A stretch of DNA of 35,511 nucleotides from an uncultured Deferribacteres bacterium (GTDB lineage Bacteria; Zhuqueibacterota; Zhuqueibacteria; Zhuqueibacterales; Geothermadaptataceae), in NCBI GenBank assembly GCA_964014485.1, contig CAXHAT010000074.1, forward strand, positions 1-35,511, read 5' to 3'. The notes beneath the pieces were generated by a model. The model was given only the letters and a program-made list of their open reading frames with translations, ran no database searches and was not told where the DNA came from. A program made the translations under genes and the position numbers. Positions 5,224 through 35,511 of this stretch are shown here, in pieces (the first letter of the stretch is position 1; each line of letters begins with the position of its first letter).

Positions 5224-5529
5224 TTAATTCAACTGCTCCCAGATTTCTTTAACAGGCAGAATCTGTTTGCCATGACGTACAGTAAGAACTTCAATTTGGT
5301 TATTTTTCAAACGGTAGATGATTCTGTATTGGCCAAACAAAAGCTCGCGAACATCATCCCTTTCAAGCTCAGGAACCATTCTCCCGCTCTTCGGAAAATC
5401 TTCAATGATTTTGACCTGATCAAAAATTCTCGCGACCCATTTTCTGGCCGCACCGGGCTTATCTGCAGCAATGTAACGCGCAATTTCTTCAACTCGGTTC
5501 AACGCCAAGAGAGACCACTTGATTTTCAT
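5224..5529 (-). CDS. Type II toxin, RelE/ParE family
   Basis: 101 aa with FPKSGRMVPE...RELLFGQYRIIYR...VLTVRHG pattern; start overlaps the antitoxin stop (TAATG). Confidence 0.88.
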   Translation of the reverse strand: MKIKWSLLALNRVEEIARYIAADKPGAARKWVARIFDQVKIIEDFPKSGRMVPELERDDVRELLFGQYRIIYRLKNNQIEVLTVRHGKQILPVKEIWEQLN

Positions 5530-28409: not shown

Positions 28410-28533
28410 GAGAAAGAAATCATTTCCATCTCTAATTTTTGTGTGCGGAATGTCGGTTTAACGGCTTTCGCGCCCGAATACAGGATTTTAGCAATAATGC
28501 CAGGTTTGTTTTCCCGCCCCCTAAATTGCCAAG

Positions 28534-28589
28534 CCCGCTGCGCGGGAAAAATAACCAAATGACTCAAATGATCAAATAGCCAATGATTG
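28534..28589 (-). promoter_or_regulatory. DGR IMH-like tract and hairpin downstream of VR2
   Basis: 25 nt (28565-28589) identical to 32286-32310 and absent from the TR; hairpin CCCGC-GCA-GCGGG at 28534-28546. Confidence 0.75.
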
Positions 28590-30023
28590 TCCGGAACGAA
28601 CAGCGCGGACGAAGACGCTGAAGTCGACAAGATCGCTGCCGCAATAACCGAGGTCGAAACCGACAACCCAGACGTCCGACGCGGCGCGCTTGTCCGCAGT
28701 CCAAATCCACGATTGCGCTTGTTCGAACAGTGGATTGATGTATAAGCCGTGTTCATTCGGCTCCGGTTCCATCAATGACATGGCTTCTTCTAGCGTGGGC
28801 AAGCGCCAGTCGTCGAATCCGGCGAATTCGGCCTGATTCAGGCTGTCGATGTATGCCTGCGCCTGAACAAAAGTCATCCTTTCAGTCGATCCGCCTTGCT
28901 GCCAGGTCAGATTGACGGCTTCGTCAACAATAAGCTGCGCACCCTCGCGCTCGATGAACTTGAATTTGTTCTCGACTCCGGCGCCGCGCGGGTTCCACAA
29001 TCTGTCATAAAAGCCTTTGTTTCGCAGCATCTCCGTAAAAGCGGAAACTTCGGAAATTGTTGTCGGTTCGGATCGCAGCAAAGGTACGCTTGCGTGCGGC
29101 GTTTTATCCTCGGCTTTTCCAAAATCCGGCATGATCGCCACGGCAAGATAAAAAATCGTTACCAGCATCATCGCCATGAAACCGAGCGTGCTCACCGGCT
29201 TTTCGTCAACGTTAAAACGTTTGCGAATAAACCTGAAGGTAAAATTGAGCTTGAGCAATAACTTGACCGCGAGACCAGACACGGCGTAGAGCCAAATCCA
29301 GACCGAGGTAAAAAAAGCCGTGTAAAAGGAAATCGAGAAAAACGGAAACGGCTCGGAGCGGAAGACGTCCACCCAAATGAGAGATTGGCTGGTGAGCGGC
29401 AGCACTTCTTCGAAGTAGACGGAGATCAACGACACGAACGATTGATCCGGCACGAAAAGCATGTCCCAAATCGATCCGTACAAGCCGGTCTTGATAAAAA
29501 TCGGTATGATCACAATCGCGATTAAGCCGGTTATGACGGCGTCGGTGAGAAGAAGAAGCACATGCTTGAAAAAAGACTGCGTGGAGGACATCCACTTGAT
29601 GACGAGACGGGTTTCAAGGAGGGAGAGGTAGTCCGGGATCAGGTTGAGCAGAAGGAGCACAAGCAGCGCGTTGAAAAGATAGCGCGCTTCAAATTCAAAA
29701 GCGCTCAATTCACTCCAACGTACAGCGGCCCAGATGAGAAACATGAGCGTAAAGGAAATTGCCGAGGCCAGACAAGAGCGCCAGAAACATTTCCAGGCGA
29801 GGTGTTTTTTGCCGAACACGGCGTCGAAGGTCTCAGCAAAAGTGCGCGGCCATCCGCCGAGGCTCTCGGGCGTTTTCAGATTTTTGAGCCACCGCGTCAC
29901 AGACTGCTTTGTCTCGGCGTTAAGCACGTCCTCGGCTTTTTCAAAAATACGGTGTATGCCGTAAGAAACGCCCAGCCAGGAGCCGAGGGCGATCAAAAAG
30001 GAAGAATTCAGGAAACCGTCCAT
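28572..30023 (-). CDS. DGR target 2: multi-pass membrane protein with C-terminal DUF1566/Lcl (CLec-fold) domain
   Basis: About 6 hydrophobic segments in the first 300 aa; C-terminal LTWQQGGS...AGFDDWRLPTLEE...WIWTAD...VRAVRSG; 3' end carries VR2. Confidence 0.88.
   Translation of the reverse strand: MDGFLNSSFLIALGSWLGVSYGIHRIFEKAEDVLNAETKQSVTRWLKNLKTPESLGGWPRTFAETFDAVFGKKHLAWKCFWRSCLASAISFTLMFLIWAAVRWSELSAFEFEARYLFNALLVLLLLNLIPDYLSLLETRLVIKWMSSTQSFFKHVLLLLTDAVITGLIAIVIIPIFIKTGLYGSIWDMLFVPDQSFVSLISVYFEEVLPLTSQSLIWVDVFRSEPFPFFSISFYTAFFTSVWIWLYAVSGLAVKLLLKLNFTFRFIRKRFNVDEKPVSTLGFMAMMLVTIFYLAVAIMPDFGKAEDKTPHASVPLLRSEPTTISEVSAFTEMLRNKGFYDRLWNPRGAGVENKFKFIEREGAQLIVDEAVNLTWQQGGSTERMTFVQAQAYIDSLNQAEFAGFDDWRLPTLEEAMSLMEPEPNEHGLYINPLFEQAQSWIWTADKRAASDVWVVGFDLGYCGSDLVDFSVFVRAVRSGQSLAI
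28590..28682 (-). repeat. DGR variable repeat VR2
   Basis: 93-nt ungapped match to the TR (31528-31620) with 18 mismatches, all at TR adenines on the coding strand. Confidence 0.96.
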
Positions 30024-30032
30024 TTATTCGCC

Positions 30033-31568
30033 TTATGGCAAGTCGTCCCAGGGATATTCTACGATCAAATACAGCACCCGTTCTTTTGTTTTGTACCGCT
30101 CGCGTCCGGTTTGGCGGACAATGACTAATGGAACGCGCGATTTCCGCAAACGCTCGGCGATTTTGTCTAAACAACGGGCGGGAAAGCCACAGCCGTATTG
30201 ATAACCGCGCCATTTGGCGTGTAACACAAGCCCCGCCGTTTGCGCCAAAATTTTTGCATCCCGGCCAAACGCTTCATAATAACACCCGATTTCAATAAGC
30301 CGGAGATGTTGGGGAAATTCCTTGCGCAGCCAGGTGATTTGCTGTTTCAATGTTTGTTTTTTGCGCAAGCCCCGGTCGCGGCGAACGAGCCTGCGCGAAG
30401 ATAATCGGTAGAATTTTTCCAGAAAATTGAATTCGCCCCAGAGTTTTTCGAGTAGTTTATGCGTTTGGGCATGTTTGAAATGGCCGAGGTAAGAATTCAT
30501 CGCGGCAAGAAGCGTTGCGAGCGTTTTTTCATGAAAATGATAAACGATGTAATGGCCGCGATTCGCTGCAAGTTTGTCTCGCACTTTTCTCAAACGCGCT
30601 GTTACATGTCCAACTACTCTGCGACGCACCAATAGATAGTGTGACCGAACTATAAACCCTGCAAAATCAACACCGCCTGAGACAGGCGCAATGCGAGAAG
30701 CTTGCTCTCGTAAACTCAACTGGAGGCGCTCTGCAAGGAATGCCGCGATCTTTTCTTTCCAGTCTCGCAATCTCGAAGGATCGAGATCAAGAAGAATGAA
30801 ATCATCAACGTAGCGGAGATAATAGCGGCATTTGAGCTCGTGTTTGACAAATTGATCCAGCGCGTCCAGGTAGACGTTGGCGAAGAATTGACTGGTGAGA
30901 TTACCGATGGGCAGGCCGCATCCCGGTTTTGCATGGAAAAGCGACTTATGCGGCGGCAATTTGAAACGCAGATTTTCACGATCCATCATGCAATAGTCCG
31001 CTGTTGGATCGTGAAAAACGACGATGCGCAGCAACCAGAGCAACTCCGGCGCTAAGGAACGCTGCGTCAGGCGCTCGAACAGCCGCCGCCGGTCGACGGA
31101 CATGAAAAAATTGAGAATGTCGAGCTTAAGATAGAAGGCGCGGCGGGAGCCGTTGCGGGTAATTTTGCGCAAGAAGCCTTGCAATGCAAATGCGGCGGCG
31201 TGCGTTCCCTTGCCGGGGCGGCAGGCGTAGGAGTGGTGAACAAATCTTTTCTCCCAGACCGGTGAGAGTGCATTATAAATCAGGTGGTGGACGATGCGAT
31301 CCCGAAACGCAGCCGCGAAGATTTCCCGGCACTTGGGCTTTTCGGTATAAAAACAGATCGAAGTTGACGGCTTGTAACGACGTTCTCGCAGTTCGTTGAC
31401 GAGCGTGAGCAGGTTCGCTTCCGCATCGATCTCAAACGCCAGCGCGCTTACCGAATTGCGCTTGGTTCTCCGGCAAGCCAGCCAGGCGCGGTACATCCGC
31501 GGGAAAGTAAACAGCGACGGACGATTATCCGGAACGAACAGCGCGGACGTAGTTGTTGTTGTCGACAT
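30033..31568 (-). CDS. DGR reverse transcriptase with C-terminal MutS-domain-I-like fusion
   Basis: FRDRIVHH, YLKLDI..FF.S, GLPIGNLTSQFFAN (DGR-type SQ motif), YLRYVDDF (YVDD at 30801-30812); start uncertain (31697, 31568 or 31496). Confidence 0.95.
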   Translation of the reverse strand: MSTTTTTSALFVPDNRPSLFTFPRMYRAWLACRRTKRNSVSALAFEIDAEANLLTLVNELRERRYKPSTSICFYTEKPKCREIFAAAFRDRIVHHLIYNALSPVWEKRFVHHSYACRPGKGTHAAAFALQGFLRKITRNGSRRAFYLKLDILNFFMSVDRRRLFERLTQRSLAPELLWLLRIVVFHDPTADYCMMDRENLRFKLPPHKSLFHAKPGCGLPIGNLTSQFFANVYLDALDQFVKHELKCRYYLRYVDDFILLDLDPSRLRDWKEKIAAFLAERLQLSLREQASRIAPVSGGVDFAGFIVRSHYLLVRRRVVGHVTARLRKVRDKLAANRGHYIVYHFHEKTLATLLAAMNSYLGHFKHAQTHKLLEKLWGEFNFLEKFYRLSSRRLVRRDRGLRKKQTLKQQITWLRKEFPQHLRLIEIGCYYEAFGRDAKILAQTAGLVLHAKWRGYQYGCGFPARCLDKIAERLRKSRVPLVIVRQTGRERYKTKERVLYLIVEYPWDDLP

Positions 31569-31620
31569 GATTGTTGTTGCAATTACCGTTGTTGAAATTG
31601 ACAACCCAGACGTCCGACGT
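31528..31620 (-). ncRNA. DGR template repeat (TR)
   Basis: AAC/AAT-rich, reads SDVWVVNFNNGNCNNNHVDNNNYVRAVRSG-stop in the VR frame; lies between avd and the RT core; differs from both VRs only at adenines. Confidence 0.96.
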
Positions 31621-31660
31621 TCTTGTCCCGATACTTGTTGGAGCTGTTCCAGCACGTTTG

Positions 31661-31687
31661 CTGGATTCCCGCCTGCGCGAGAATGAC
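31661..31687. repeat. Single REP-like arm inside the avd-TR spacer
   Basis: Minus strand GTCATTCTCGCGCAGGCGGGAATCCAG, same family as the arms at 14260, 25875 and 35443. Confidence 0.75.
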
Positions 31688-31811
31688 ATGGAAGCAACGA
31701 TTTGGAACGGCTCCGCTCGACTGCACCACTCGCGCTTTACGGCAACAGGCGCGTCGGATCAAAGATACCCTGTTTGCAATTGCAACAGGGTGACCGGGAT
31801 GCACAATCATC

Positions 31812-32213
31812 TTATCGGCGCGCTCTCGTTTCCGGCTGAGCGCCGGAAAAAGATTCTGGCCGGTCGCGTTTTTTCATCGTTTTTAGCCAGCCTTCGTTCT
31901 GTTTGCACAGCTCCGCCACCTGATTGATGCTGTGTTGAAAGGAATTGAAGTTGGCAAACGCTTTCAAATCTTTGCACAGGCGGATCGTTATTTTCAAATC
32001 TTCCAGCCTGTCCCGGCAAAGCAGCAGACCGGGCGCCTTGTCTTCGGCGTCATTGGCTTGCCGGATTAGGCGCAAAATTTCACGCGAGATTTGGCGCAAT
32101 TCCGCGCCAACGGTGTATTTGTGATAACGGCTGAAATTGCGCACGATTTTTTCAAAGTAAAGGGTCAGATCATAGGCTTGTTTGTAGATGGGCAAATGTT
32201 CGTACCTTGCCAT
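31812..32213 (-). CDS. avd: DGR accessory variability determinant (four-helix bundle)
   Basis: Basic 133-aa helical protein MARYEHLPIYKQAYDL...FSRYHKYTVGAELR...LCKQNEGWLK; immediately upstream of TR-RT; GGAGAG RBS before ATG 32213. Confidence 0.88.
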   Translation of the reverse strand: MARYEHLPIYKQAYDLTLYFEKIVRNFSRYHKYTVGAELRQISREILRLIRQANDAEDKAPGLLLCRDRLEDLKITIRLCKDLKAFANFNSFQHSINQVAELCKQNEGWLKTMKKRDRPESFSGAQPETRARR

Positions 32214-32252
32214 TGCTCTCTCCGGTTTTGCGCCATATTTCAAATTTTCAAA

Positions 32253-32310
32253 CCCGCTGCGCGGGAATTAAAGAATCAAATAACCCAAATGATCAAATAG
32301 CCAATGATTG
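32253..32310 (-). promoter_or_regulatory. DGR IMH-like tract and hairpin downstream of VR1
   Basis: 25 nt (32286-32310) identical to the tract after VR2; hairpin CCCGC-GCA-GCGGG at 32253-32265. Confidence 0.75.
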
Positions 32311-35300
32311 TCCGGAACGAACAGCGCGGACGTAGTAGTCGCTGACGACACGAACGTAGCTGCAAACACCGAAGTCGAAAAAGACAACCCAGACGACCGA
32401 CGCGTCGCGCTTGTCCGCAGTCCAGATCCAGCTCTGCTTTTGGTCGAATGCCGGATCGATGTACAGATCGCCGTTCTTCTTTTCCGGCTCCATTAGTGTC
32501 ATCGCTTCTTCTAGTGTCGGGAGACGCCAGTCATCAAAACCGGCGACTTTGTCCCGGTTCAGCTTTTCCACATACTCCTCGGCGTTCGTATAATTCATCG
32601 TATCCGATGATCCGCCCTGCTGCCAGGTCAGCCCGCTCGCTAAATCCGACGCCAATTTTTCGCCGTTCGCTTCGAGAGGCATGAGCGCGGTGCTCACACC
32701 TCGCCCTTTCTTGTTCCAGTCCGAGTCGAATAGCCCGACCTCCGCCAACATCGTTTTAACCTGATCAACTGAAAGCGTTTGCGGCTCACTGCGCAGTTTT
32801 GGCGGCTCAACCCCCAACGCCGCCAGCACTTTCGGCAGGCCGTCTGGATTCTTCAACCCGGTACAGCGGTTCAGCTTGAGTTGTTTTAATTTCGGCGTTT
32901 TGGGCAAACTTGCGAGGTCTTTTAACCCGGTAAAGCCGCTCAGGTTCAAGCGTTCGAGCGCAGGCAGTTCGGGCGGCAGGAAGCTTACATCTTTCAAATT
33001 GGCGCATTCACTGAAATCCAACGATGCGAGAGCGCCGAACTGTCGGGCAAAATACGGGAAGACTTCGCGGTGAAAATCCGAATCATCGAGAGAGTCCTTG
33101 AGAATTTCGTCAAAAACCGACGTGCGGGAATCACCGGCGTAGCTTGCCAGAACCGTGCGCGCCGCTTCATCGCCAATCAATTTGAGAGCGTGTACGCAGG
33201 CCGCAGCTTCAGGAATCGTGAGCTGTTCCCGCCAACCCAAATGCGTCGCAGCCAGCGTTCCCGCCGCCGCAATCGCCTTGGCGTCTTCCTTGTTTTTCGG
33301 CGGAATCAGCGTCGTCAAACTTTCGTCCACCGTACCCCGTAGCTCCCGGTCAACAACCACTGCCGTTTCCAGACAGGCGACGGCGAGCAAGTGAAAGTAG
33401 TGTCGCCTCTCGGCGTCCCGGTCTCCAGCTTCTACAAGATTACGAATGATTTTGTCGGCGGCTTTGGGCGCGGCGTGCCCGGCGGCGAGAATCACGACTT
33501 CGCGCCACTGGTCGTCATGCGCATTCTGATGCAAAAAACCCAGGTCGCCTTCGTCAATAATCGCCTTCGCGGCCAAAAACTCCTGAAACGTGCGGTGGGC
33601 GAAATCCATCTCTCCTTCCACTGGCGATTGCAACAGCCCGCTGCGCTCCACCAAAAAAGCGCGAATGTTCTTCGCTTCGTCTTGAATTCCGAGATTCGGG
33701 AGTTGCTTTTCAAAACGCTCATCGGCCTCTTCAAATGAAATCCGCGACCAGCCGTTGCGCATCATCCAAAGCGCCAAATCTTCCAGCAAGGCCCGTTTTC
33801 GGGTGTAGTTGAGTTCAGTGGGCGCGTGCGTCGTGTCCACGCCCACGCTCTGTTCCCTGCCCCGGCGCTCCAGAATCATCTCGCAGCAGGCTTCATAAAG
33901 ACGCAGGCGCTCTGACGGAACATCCTTTTTTCGCTCGCGATGCAAGGCGCAAACGGCGGAGCAGAGCAGCGGATTGGCGGTCAGATTGCGCAATGCCAAT
34001 TTGGTTCTGATTTCGCTTTTCAAGCTTGCTTCCAGATCATCAAGTTCGGCCTTTTCGTCGTCGCGGAACAACTCCTTCTTCACCGCGCGATGCCAGTGCT
34101 CGATGAATCGGGTAATTTGCGTCAAGCCCATCGATTCAAAGGTGAATTCATTGAATCCTTCGCGGGCAAGACGGCCTTCTTCCATGGCGCTGGGTCGCGT
34201 CGTCACCACGAATTTTGTCTTTTGAAATTTCTTATTGCCGACAAGCTCTCTGAGCCATTCATAAACGCGCTCTCTTTGGTCGGGCGGCGTTTCATCCACG
34301 CCATCGATCAGAATGATCGCGCGTCCGGCGGCAAGCAATTCGCGCACCCAGCCTTTCGGCGTCTCTTCAGCGATAGTAGGTAGCAAATGTTCCACAAATT
34401 CCTGAGGCGCGGGCAAGTCGCGGTCGACGAATTTGCGCAAGTAAATGATGAAAGGCACTCTGTCGTTCAACGCGGCAAGCTCGCCCTGAAAGCGGTGCCC
34501 AGCGCACTGCACGGCGACCCATTTCACAAAAGTGGTTTTACCGCTGCCCGCCAATCCGCGCACTACTAAGCGGTCGCCGTAGTTCAAAACGCCGTCCGCG
34601 GCAACGACGAGATTTTCATCGGCTTCTTTTCTTGCGCCGCTTGACATGGAGAGACTAATGTACGCCACCGTCAAGCTGTGACGGCGGCTCCCCTGGCGCG
34701 TGACATCCAGGCCGACGAGCTTGATCTCGTCCAACGTTTCCACCAAGGTCTTACGGTAGTCTTCCTCAAACTGTGCGGCGGCGACTTCAGGATTAACCGC
34801 CTGGCTGCTTTCGCGAATTTTTCGCAGTTCATTGAGAACGCCGTCAACCTTGTGGAGCAGTCGATCTTCGCGCTTCAGCACTTCGGCGAACATATTCTCA
34901 TGAAAACTCGGCAGGCGCGAGGCGATCCCGACAACGTAATGGGCGCATTCCTTGAGCACGCGGTCGCAGAACGATTGCTCGGCTTCGGAAAAAGCGCGCA
35001 TTTTGTCGGCGCTTTCCTGTTGCAGCAAACGGTAAAGCTTGATTGGATCGAGATTGATTTCGGCGAGTTTCGCGGCGTCGATTTTGAGTTGATTCAAGAT
35101 ACCGGCGGCGGTTTCGGCGAGCAGCTTTCTCGTGTCGTCGTCCAGCGCTTGCTGCCGGAACACATGCTCAAGGTTTTTCGCCACTTTTATTGCGACGGCT
35201 TCAAACTGGCTGCGCCCCTGCCGCGCCGCCATGTCGCTGGAAACACGAGATTTCAGCAGATCAATAATTTCTCCGCCGAGTTCTTGTGGTAAACCAGGAT

Positions 35301-35376
35301 CGGGAAGCCAGAATTTCAGGATGGTTTTGGCGACCGCCGAGCCGAGGGTTGTGAAAAGAATGTCTAAAAGAGCCAT
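32293..35376 (-). CDS. DGR target 1: NLR-like protein (helical N-terminus, NACHT NTPase, LRR, DUF1566/Lcl CLec domain)
   Basis: Walker A GLAGSGKTT (34531-34557), Walker B IILIDGVDE, VVTTRP, NPLL, FAHRTFQEFLAA, WREV; about 3 LRRs (LASLDFSEC, LERLNLSGF, LKQLKLNRC); WRLPT domain ending in VR1. Confidence 0.92.
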   Translation of the reverse strand: MALLDILFTTLGSAVAKTILKFWLPDPGLPQELGGEIIDLLKSRVSSDMAARQGRSQFEAVAIKVAKNLEHVFRQQALDDDTRKLLAETAAGILNQLKIDAAKLAEINLDPIKLYRLLQQESADKMRAFSEAEQSFCDRVLKECAHYVVGIASRLPSFHENMFAEVLKREDRLLHKVDGVLNELRKIRESSQAVNPEVAAAQFEEDYRKTLVETLDEIKLVGLDVTRQGSRRHSLTVAYISLSMSSGARKEADENLVVAADGVLNYGDRLVVRGLAGSGKTTFVKWVAVQCAGHRFQGELAALNDRVPFIIYLRKFVDRDLPAPQEFVEHLLPTIAEETPKGWVRELLAAGRAIILIDGVDETPPDQRERVYEWLRELVGNKKFQKTKFVVTTRPSAMEEGRLAREGFNEFTFESMGLTQITRFIEHWHRAVKKELFRDDEKAELDDLEASLKSEIRTKLALRNLTANPLLCSAVCALHRERKKDVPSERLRLYEACCEMILERRGREQSVGVDTTHAPTELNYTRKRALLEDLALWMMRNGWSRISFEEADERFEKQLPNLGIQDEAKNIRAFLVERSGLLQSPVEGEMDFAHRTFQEFLAAKAIIDEGDLGFLHQNAHDDQWREVVILAAGHAAPKAADKIIRNLVEAGDRDAERRHYFHLLAVACLETAVVVDRELRGTVDESLTTLIPPKNKEDAKAIAAAGTLAATHLGWREQLTIPEAAACVHALKLIGDEAARTVLASYAGDSRTSVFDEILKDSLDDSDFHREVFPYFARQFGALASLDFSECANLKDVSFLPPELPALERLNLSGFTGLKDLASLPKTPKLKQLKLNRCTGLKNPDGLPKVLAALGVEPPKLRSEPQTLSVDQVKTMLAEVGLFDSDWNKKGRGVSTALMPLEANGEKLASDLASGLTWQQGGSSDTMNYTNAEEYVEKLNRDKVAGFDDWRLPTLEEAMTLMEPEKKNGDLYIDPAFDQKQSWIWTADKRDASVVWVVFFDFGVCSYVRVVSDYYVRAVRSGQSLAI
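32311..32403 (-). repeat. DGR variable repeat VR1
   Basis: 93-nt ungapped match to the TR with 18 mismatches, all at TR adenines on the coding strand. Confidence 0.96.
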
Positions 35377-35402: not shown

Positions 35403-35511
35403 GTTACGCGACAACTCGAAAATACAAAAACAGTTTCTCAACGTCATACCCGCGGAGGCGGGTATCCAGCGGTTGGCGCCATTTTCTGGATACCCGCCTC
35501 CGCGGGTATGA
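35403..35511. repeat. MITE/REP-like element copy C (truncated by the contig end)
   Basis: Begins with GTTACGCG like copy B and the reverse complement of copy A's right end; inverted arms at 35443-35469 and 35486-35511 with compensatory base changes. Confidence 0.8.

Follow-up and report, generated by a model that had tools for sequence, protein, structure and literature searches.

Diversity-generating retroelements (DGRs) transfer sequence from a template repeat (TR) to a variable repeat (VR) in a target gene and change it at adenines on the way. The prototype, that of Bordetella phage BPP-1, has the order mtd-avd-TR-brt, and the structure of its reverse transcriptase (RT) has been determined (8ub7). 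The text of Doré et al. 2024 (PMC10907252) describes a major cellular lineage of RTs in which a genome has several DGR loci and a cassette usually two targets. In these targets, NACHT/nSTAND, TIR, peptidase or membrane modules are fused to a lectin-type domain that holds the VR. Both cytoplasmic and periplasmic targets occur, and remote ones, which the text of Wu et al. 2018 (PMC5758913) also documents, are recognised through perfect identity at the non-adenine positions. Doré et al. 2024 propose that such DGRs generate diversity in putative antigen sensors. Here we analyse a 35.5-kb contig (CAXHAT010000074.1, taken at its full length of 35,511 nucleotides and called the window) from an uncultured marine bacterium of the phylum KSB1/Zhuqueibacterota (assembly GCA_964014485.1; 8.4 Mb in 465 contigs, 97% complete). 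The window very probably carries an intact chromosomal DGR, here named DGR1, laid out as target 1 (T1), avd, TR, RT and target 2 (T2), with all genes on the minus strand. Because it matches the multi-locus, sensor-diversifying DGRs of Doré et al. 2024, DGR1 belongs to a kind of element that is already known.

How does the locus compare with its closest described relatives? Like the clade-5 cellular DGRs, of which DGR 3/6 of Thiohalocapsa sp. PB-PSB1 are examples in the text of PMC10907252, it is chromosomal, is one of several loci in its genome and has two targets in its cassette. NACHT/STAND, TIR or membrane parts are again joined to a C-terminal VR domain, lectin-type at sequence level, and some targets are again served in trans. 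This likeness rests on locus number, target modules and trans targets; the relatives of the RT also include taxa named in that paper. The VR domain differs: here it is Lcl_C/DUF1566 (CLec2 type), whereas in Thiohalocapsa DGR 6 it is of the FGE-sulfatase type. The host also belongs to a phylum, KSB1/Zhuqueibacterota, that the text of the paper does not mention.

DGR1 shares with BPP-1 the adenine-specific transfer from TR to VR and the core of Avd and RT. The BPP-1 element is phage-borne and has a single target of the Mtd tail-fibre type, whereas DGR1 is chromosomal and has at least four. The BPP-1 RT (328 aa) has no C-terminal extension, whereas that of DGR1 carries MutS domain I. Finally, a spacer separates the TR from brt in BPP-1; in DGR1 the RT frame abuts or overlaps the TR.

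A previous description of the window from its letters alone (the sequence-only reading) had reported a 93-nt TR aligned to VRs at the 3' ends of two genes, with 18 differences in each, all at adenines. This holds at the same coordinates. Read on the coding (minus) strand from 31620 to 31528, the TR consists of 26 A, 25 C, 22 T and 20 G, and it aligns without gaps to VR1 (32403 to 32311) and VR2 (28682 to 28590). VR1 departs from it by ten A-to-T and eight A-to-G changes; VR2 by ten A-to-G, seven A-to-T and one A-to-C. All 36 mismatches fall on TR adenines; the 67 non-A positions have none. If 18 mismatches were placed at random, simple arithmetic puts the probability of all of them hitting A at (26/93)^18, about 1e-10 per VR. 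In the VR frame the TR reads TSDVWVVNFNNGNCNNNHVDNNNYVRAVRSG and then a stop, with the 10 AAY codons of the sequence-only reading. The 15^10 protein variants per target calculated in that reading stand for the AAY codons; they are not the total, since AAY codons alone were counted.

The same reading gave the element two targets and advised a search of the remaining genome for more. We searched the entire genome for matches to the TR, with its adenines left free and up to eight other changes tolerated. Exactly five places were returned: the TR, VR1, VR2 and two remote VRs. The remote VR on contig C30 (44987-45079) has 16 A-site changes and that on contig C135 (21523-21615) has 12, with no non-A change in either. 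The element therefore serves at least four targets, two of them remote, and 64 of the 64 differences between the four VRs and the TR lie at adenines. In all four VRs the base at the first TR position is G and the last A of the TR is kept, which leaves about 24 adenines that effectively vary.

The surroundings of the VRs make the pattern sharper. Pairwise nucleotide identity among the four target genes is 58-60% from -300 to -151 relative to the VR and 68-80% from -150 to -1. It is 100% at the 67 non-A VR positions and falls to 27-54% at the 26 A positions. This is the profile expected of repeated overwriting from one template. Since the non-A positions are identical despite diverged flanks, the last homing events were apparently recent relative to the divergence of the target genes.

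The proteins encoded between the targets are those of a DGR, as the sequence-only reading had it when it placed an avd gene and an RT with GNLTSQ and YVDD motifs there, in open frames on one strand. The avd product matches Pfam bAvd (PF22296; 3.9e-13, 50.3 bits against a cut-off of 40), and its start is most likely the ATG at 32213, behind GGAGAG. The RT matches Pfam RVT_1 (1.6e-14), with the IGNLTSQ and YVDD motifs intact. A phmmer search of the PDB gave the Bordetella DGR RT as best match (8ub7_A, 3e-41) and a group II maturase at 1.5e-12. An AlphaFold model built on 34 homologues reached a pLDDT of 90.4 and a pTM of 0.81. The top five Foldseek matches to this model are RT entries of DGR ribonucleoproteins, among them that of BPP-1, on which the core superposes with a target-normalised TM-score of 0.89 (8ub7_A, E 2.6e-25); the next match is the group II RT 6ar3_A (2e-17). 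A scan of NCBIfam returned sub-threshold RT matches only, and none to a DGR RT model. By sequence and by modelled fold, the RT is of the DGR type, and with the adenine-specific divergence and Avd this agrees with the DGR identity first assigned to the locus.

The RT frame is open throughout the TR. The recorded gene call (P0005, 511 aa) begins at ATG 31568, within the TR; an alternative start at ATG 31496 gives 487 aa, and many homologues are called from the equivalent position. Either start may be the one in use. In the 511-aa form the first 15 residues are modelled as disordered. In several RT homologues, too, the N-terminus is rich in Thr and corresponds to the TR translated in a different frame. 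Besides its role as template, the TR may encode a disordered N-terminus of the RT.

The closest named homologues of the RT belong to the candidate phylum KSB1/Zhuqueibacterota. In a quick tree it groups with the RT of Candidatus Zhuqueibacter pondensis, in a clade that also takes in the second RT of this genome, that of the paralogous cassette on C135 (SH-aLRT 99). As a guide to taxonomy an RT is weak. Other relatives recovered with it come from loci of Thiohalocapsa, Chromatiaceae, magnetotactic Nitrospirota, Desulfobacterota and Thiomargarita.

What does the element diversify? By sequence profiles, all four targets end in an Lcl_C/DUF1566 domain, and VRs in DUF1566 domains are classed as CLec2 (Legionella type) in the text of Wu et al. 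2018 (PMC5758913). Ahead of this domain the targets differ. T1 combines NNH1 (2e-31) and NACHT (5.2e-22), a STAND NTPase, with Lcl_C (1.1e-19) by Pfam; it has a weak LRR match (LRR_4, 3.1e-5, under its cut-off) and, by hydropathy, no real transmembrane segment. T2 has about five transmembrane segments predicted by hydropathy in its N-terminal part and Lcl_C (Pfam, 4.9e-18) at its C-terminus; the positive-inside rule weakly suggests that its variable domain faces outward. The C30 remote target (622 aa) has one N-terminal transmembrane segment, a weak nSTAND-type P-loop and Lcl_C, and the C135 remote target (312 aa) has TIR_2 (3e-29) and Lcl_C. Both remote genes are surrounded by ordinary metabolic genes. 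The NACHT and TIR targets have no predicted membrane segment and look cytoplasmic. By analogy with the published systems, the four targets are most likely, if tentatively, diversified ligand sensors of conflict-type or immune-type systems.

The N-terminal part of T2 deserves a remark of its own. Residues 1-310 (29100-30023) form a polytopic membrane module that belongs to no Pfam family. It resembles only unnamed, stand-alone clusters of 'hypothetical proteins' of about 290-350 aa, mostly from Pseudomonadota (TM-score 0.57-0.64), and one such cluster is fused to Sel1 repeats. Possibly, the T2 N-terminus represents a membrane module, as yet without a name, that combines with different sensor domains.

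DGR1 is one of three RT loci in the genome, the others being DGR2 on contig C135 and DGR3 on contig C94. DGR2 (C135:5253-10704) is a paralogue with the order target-avd-TR-RT-target; identity to DGR1 is 56% for the RT and 64% for avd. Its TR lies at about C135:8116-8226 and its VRs at C135:8833-8942 and 5253-5363; adenines account for 19 of 22 differences in the first VR and 18 of 20 in the second. The same contig carries, 12 kb away, the remote TIR target of DGR1, which matches the TR of DGR1, not that of DGR2. DGR3 (C94:21500-28400 and C428:1921-2045) is unrelated. It comprises a MoxR-like AAA ATPase, an HRDC accessory gene, an RT of 337 aa and a target of 1182 aa with two FGE-sulfatase domains. 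Its TR (C94:28232-28356) has three VRs, with differences at adenines in 13 of 15, 16 of 18 and 13 of 15 cases.

How could the machinery tell a VR from the TR? The TR and the VRs share an A-free, GC-rich tail of 21 nt, GTCCGCGCTGTTCGTTCCGGA, after which the VRs have C and the TR has T. A hairpin, CCCGC-GCA-GCGGG, follows three of the four VRs (VR1, VR2 and the C30 VR); the fourth is followed by a longer inverted repeat. Judged by its letters, DGR1 has an end like the initiation of mutagenic homing (IMH/IMH*) sequences, with VR-specific sequence and an inverted repeat downstream. The BPP-1 repeats likewise have an A-free, GC-rich end, then VR-specific sequence and a GC inverted repeat.

Between the VR and the hairpin lies a further element. 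Three to four tandem 8-nt units, RTNATTTG, stand directly 3' of all six VRs of DGR1 and DGR2, the first unit overlapping the stop codon, and the TRs of both elements are without them. The pattern ATTTG-N3-ATTTG-N3-4-ATTTG occurs six times in the 8.4-Mb genome, and all six occurrences are at DGR1 or DGR2 VR 3' flanks. Among relatives, a two-unit pattern lies within 80 nt 3' of the VR in 27 of 68 cases, as against 0/61 3' of a TR, 0/68 5' of a VR and 33/11466 background windows of 80 nt. Self-identity at a lag of eight is 0.435 in their VR flanks and 0.249 in their TR flanks, and two or more chained units are found in 36/68 VR flanks versus 2/61 TR flanks. Several of the VR flanks that have no array appear to continue as coding sequence. 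The four DGR1 targets are 64-100% identical over the first 55 nt past the VR and 40-62% over the next 55; the three most similar flanks are paralogous copies and hence not independent. We found no description of the array in the IMH section of Wu et al. 2018 (PMC5758913) or by text searches, and no report of a tandem octamer array for BPP-1 in the same places; supplementary tables may hold more. From its distribution, the RTNATTTG array is a candidate VR-specific target mark.

Degenerate arrays occur elsewhere in the genome as well. It has 13 Lcl_C genes, six of which are the DGR1 and DGR2 targets. The remaining seven have no adenine-specific TR partner anywhere in the assembly. Three of these (C5:6435-6815, C34:23256-23628 and C34:25858-26227), with TIR-like or unknown N-termini, end in degenerate octamer arrays; the other four (on C45, C128, C130 and C322) have none. 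The array-bearing three would be orphan or fossil targets, or else be served by a DGR that the assembly lacks.

The closest named relative of DGR1, a locus of Candidatus Zhuqueibacter pondensis (L064), has an RT 55% identical to that of DGR1 and the order target-avd-like-TR-RT-target. Its targets are Lcl_C proteins and, as in DGR1, octamer arrays follow both VRs. The N-terminal modules of its targets are caspase (Peptidase_C14) and TIR, whereas the local targets of DGR1 have NACHT and the membrane module. It follows that the N-terminal modules have been swapped and the variable domain kept.

The second unusual feature sits at the C-terminal end of the RT, where residues 451-536 of its open reading frame (ORF) match Pfam MutS_I (PF01624; 6.7e-9, 36.4 bits against a cut-off of 20.6), and the tail aligns with residues 16-97 of Thermus MutS 1ewq (E 2.3e-9). 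In MutS, the GDFYE motif (Phe-x-Glu) makes the mismatch contact. The RT tail has GCYYE at the aligned place: Phe is replaced by Tyr and Glu is kept. Among the 120 best RT homologues, the PF01624 label is precomputed for 55, the tail is matched by 110, and G-x-[FYWH]-[YFH]-E-x-[FYWL] is kept in 95. At 46 of the 79 loci of relatives, at least 95 aa extend beyond the RT thumb. The Pfam MutS_I scan covered these 46 ORFs, the 33 shorter, cut or interrupted tails being left out; 37 of the 46 match at E<=0.01, and 33 of these exceed the cut-off. A tblastn search with the tail had picked up only 20 of the 79 loci and was given up for the Pfam scans. The RTs from the candidate phyla radiation (CPR) or from Omnitrophota have no such tail. 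Within the genome, MutS_I matches are confined to the canonical mutS and two RT-borne copies, that of the C135 RT being marginal (19.7-22.7 bits against the same cut-off). To judge from these profile matches, MutS domain I on the RT, a little-described feature, is common across its clade.

What has been written about it? Wu et al. 2018 (PMC5758913) remark in their text on 'three related RTs' with weak MutS_I identity. This is the only mention of RT-MutS_I fusions that we found in the searchable literature, and the supplementary tables of Wu et al. and Doré et al. may list more; searches of Doré et al. 2024 (PMC10907252) turned up no reference to MutS. The Legionella pneumophila DGR (LdtA; Architecture D, target category 'd', in the text of PMC5758913) is the nearest parallel, with a C-terminal DUF1566/CLec2 VR, an avd gene and a MutS-related component. 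There the MutS-like part is a separate small gene (MSL), whereas here it is fused to the C-terminus of the RT; only the avd and RT ORFs lie between the DGR1 targets, so that the separate MSL gene of Architecture D (Wu et al. 2018) is absent from this cassette. The Legionella target is a surface lipoprotein, whereas at least two targets here (NACHT and TIR) are without a predicted membrane segment. In Bacteroides, the text of a preprint reports a stand-alone Msl protein, and knockout of the host mutS raised VR mutagenesis 5-10 fold (bioRxiv 10.1101/2024.11.15.621889).

The RT of one relative has an odd continuation. In a Thiobacillus sp. metagenome-assembled genome (L010:6025-8556), the frame of RT and MutS_I continues, with no intervening stop, through a complete aspartate-semialdehyde dehydrogenase and so spans 844 aa. 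This is either a real fusion or the result of a lost stop codon or sequencing error.

On the established DGR mechanism, the avd-TR-RT region would be transcribed, and the RT with Avd would copy the TR RNA into cDNA, misincorporating opposite adenines. The cDNA would then replace the VR at the 3' end of a target gene, recoding about 14 codons of the putative Lcl_C/DUF1566 ligand-binding domain; at AAY sites this recoding could not yield stop codons. The TR-to-VR direction would be set by sequences that only the VRs have: the C in place of T after the shared end, the octamer array and, at three of the four VRs, the hairpin. Tentatively, the MutS domain I fused to the RT may bind the densely mismatched heteroduplex of cDNA and VR, and it could stop the host MutS, which the genome encodes, from reverting it. 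Throughout a large clade of cellular DGRs, the array might mark the target beyond IMH and hairpin, and the MutS domain I, whose aromatic-x-Glu motif is conserved, might act on the heteroduplex, perhaps as a shield against host MutS; we offer this pair of roles as a possibility that falls short of being probable. Array and MutS domain I together would then be, with the same reserve, the clade's own answer to target choice and escape from mismatch repair.

Several observations weigh against this account or parts of it. The avd product scores below the cut-off of NCBIfam DivGenRetAVD (1.9e-12, 47.4 bits against 80). The array is present in only about half of the VR flanks of relatives, and arrays also occur at CPR loci whose RT has no MutS tail. 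As a target mark the array is putative, its function being read from its position, and a part for MutS domain I in handling or shielding the heteroduplex is likewise tentative. Modelling adds little about the variable domain: an AF2 model of the T1 Lcl_C domain, from an alignment of 13 paralogues, had a pLDDT of 39.9, too low to map variable residues, and a PDB profile search with the Lcl_C paralogue alignment gave 8q4e_A at E 0.092 as its best match. A sensor or immune role for such targets is a published hypothesis (Doré et al. 2024).

Is DGR1 still at work? Its sequence suggests that it is active now or was so recently. It could instead be a frozen relic, a cassette that formerly wrote the four VRs and retrohomes no longer, for example because it is silenced or has an unseen regulatory defect. 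We think this unlikely. The public read data, available as contigs only, from three runs of one study at about 2-8x, could be read in favour of a relic: the dominant VR1 and VR2 alleles in all three samples are identical to the window, and the remaining evidence is compatible with past activity alone. Contigs drop minor variants, which are undetectable at this depth, and identical dominant alleles from one study say little. A long-dead cassette also fits poorly with five open genes, intact RT motifs and a confident RT model, or with the absence of any change at 4 x 67 non-A positions next to coding sequence that is 58-80% identical. At TR positions 31578, 31583 and 31584 these data show other letters; they match the C135 remote VR and so come from that copy aligned on the TR, and we reject variation of the TR itself.

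An error of assembly is far less probable. Repeats would have joined pieces that are not adjacent, so that the cassette or the assignment of its targets is chimeric; the sequence-only reading had named such artefacts as a danger. This is a metagenome assembly of 465 contigs with many dispersed repeats, and Logan contigs do break close to the VR and TR copies. Independent contigs nevertheless agree with the window without a single difference where it matters: one (29479-30637) connects the stop of the RT with the start of T2, one (32157-32458) runs from avd through hairpin, array and VR1 into T1, and two (28523-28749 and 28565-29084) cover VR2. The order target-avd-TR-RT-target also recurs in the C135 paralogue and in two relatives (L018 and L064). 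A third rival, ordinary paralogy or gene conversion between genes with lectin domains plus an unrelated RT close by, is for practical purposes refuted by the adenine-only pattern: similar 3' ends are expected among 13 Lcl_C genes, but gene conversion would not confine 64 of 64 differences to the adenines of one non-coding copy that is flanked by avd and a DGR-type RT and, in the VR frame, terminates in a stop codon.

The intact chromosomal DGR that we favour lies among ordinary genes (coordinates of its parts are given in Table 1). The neighbouring ORFs that were scanned are housekeeping or other ordinary genes, including those for GatB, an amidase, SAICAR synthetase, adenylosuccinate lyase, phosphatidylserine decarboxylase, CDP-diglyceride synthetase and a pseudouridine synthase. 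None of the scanned window ORFs is a phage gene, and the chromosomal setting proposed in the sequence-only reading stands. A scan for promoters and terminators found sites no commoner than in shuffled sequence. The contig ends (35444-35511) in a perfect 26-nt inverted repeat with arms at 35444-35469 and 35486-35511, each arm itself palindromic. The genome is rich in dispersed short repeats of about 70-190 nt, which probably cause the contig breaks.

Table 1. Parts of DGR1 and their positions in the window
Feature	Position	Strand	Remarks
T1 target gene	32293-35376	-	1027 aa; open frame; Pfam matches
VR1	32311-32403	-	last 31 codons of T1 variable tract; 18/18 mismatches at TR adenines
Octamer array after VR1	32269-32301	-	3 clear RTNATTTG units and 1 degenerate; unit 1 overlaps T1 stop
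GC hairpin 3' of VR1	32253-32265	-	CCCGC-GCA-GCGGG; at the place of the BPP-1-type GC inverted repeat
avd	31812-32213	-	133 aa from ATG 32213, GGAGAG upstream; longer TTG frame up to 32243
TR	31528-31620	-	93 nt; 26 adenines; 10 AAY codons; TAA end in VR frame
RT	30033-31568	-	511 aa from ATG 31568 inside TR; ORF open to 31697
RT domain	~30654-31334	-	IGNLTSQ 30888-30908; YVDD 30801-30812
MutS domain I on RT C-terminus	30090-30347	-	PF01624; GCYYE at 30273-30287
T2 target gene	28572-30023	-	483 aa; membrane module and Lcl_C with VR2
VR2	28590-28682	-	18/18 mismatches at TR adenines
Octamer array after VR2	28548-28580	-	tandem RTNATTTG units
GC hairpin 3' of VR2	28534-28546	-	CCCGC-GCA-GCGGG; 13-mer identical to that of VR1

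DGR1 provides an example of an intact multi-target DGR from the barely studied phylum KSB1/Zhuqueibacterota. The element agrees with a published proposal, namely that in some bacteria NLR-like, TIR and membrane proteins have their sensor tips hypermutated. If the array is a true target mark, it would be a simple sequence rule for locating remote DGR targets and a handle for reprogramming such elements. If the MutS domain I borne by the RT truly works against host mismatch repair, the survival of densely mismatched intermediates would have an explanation, a question raised by the Bacteroides mutS result in the preprint text (bioRxiv 10.1101/2024.11.15.621889).

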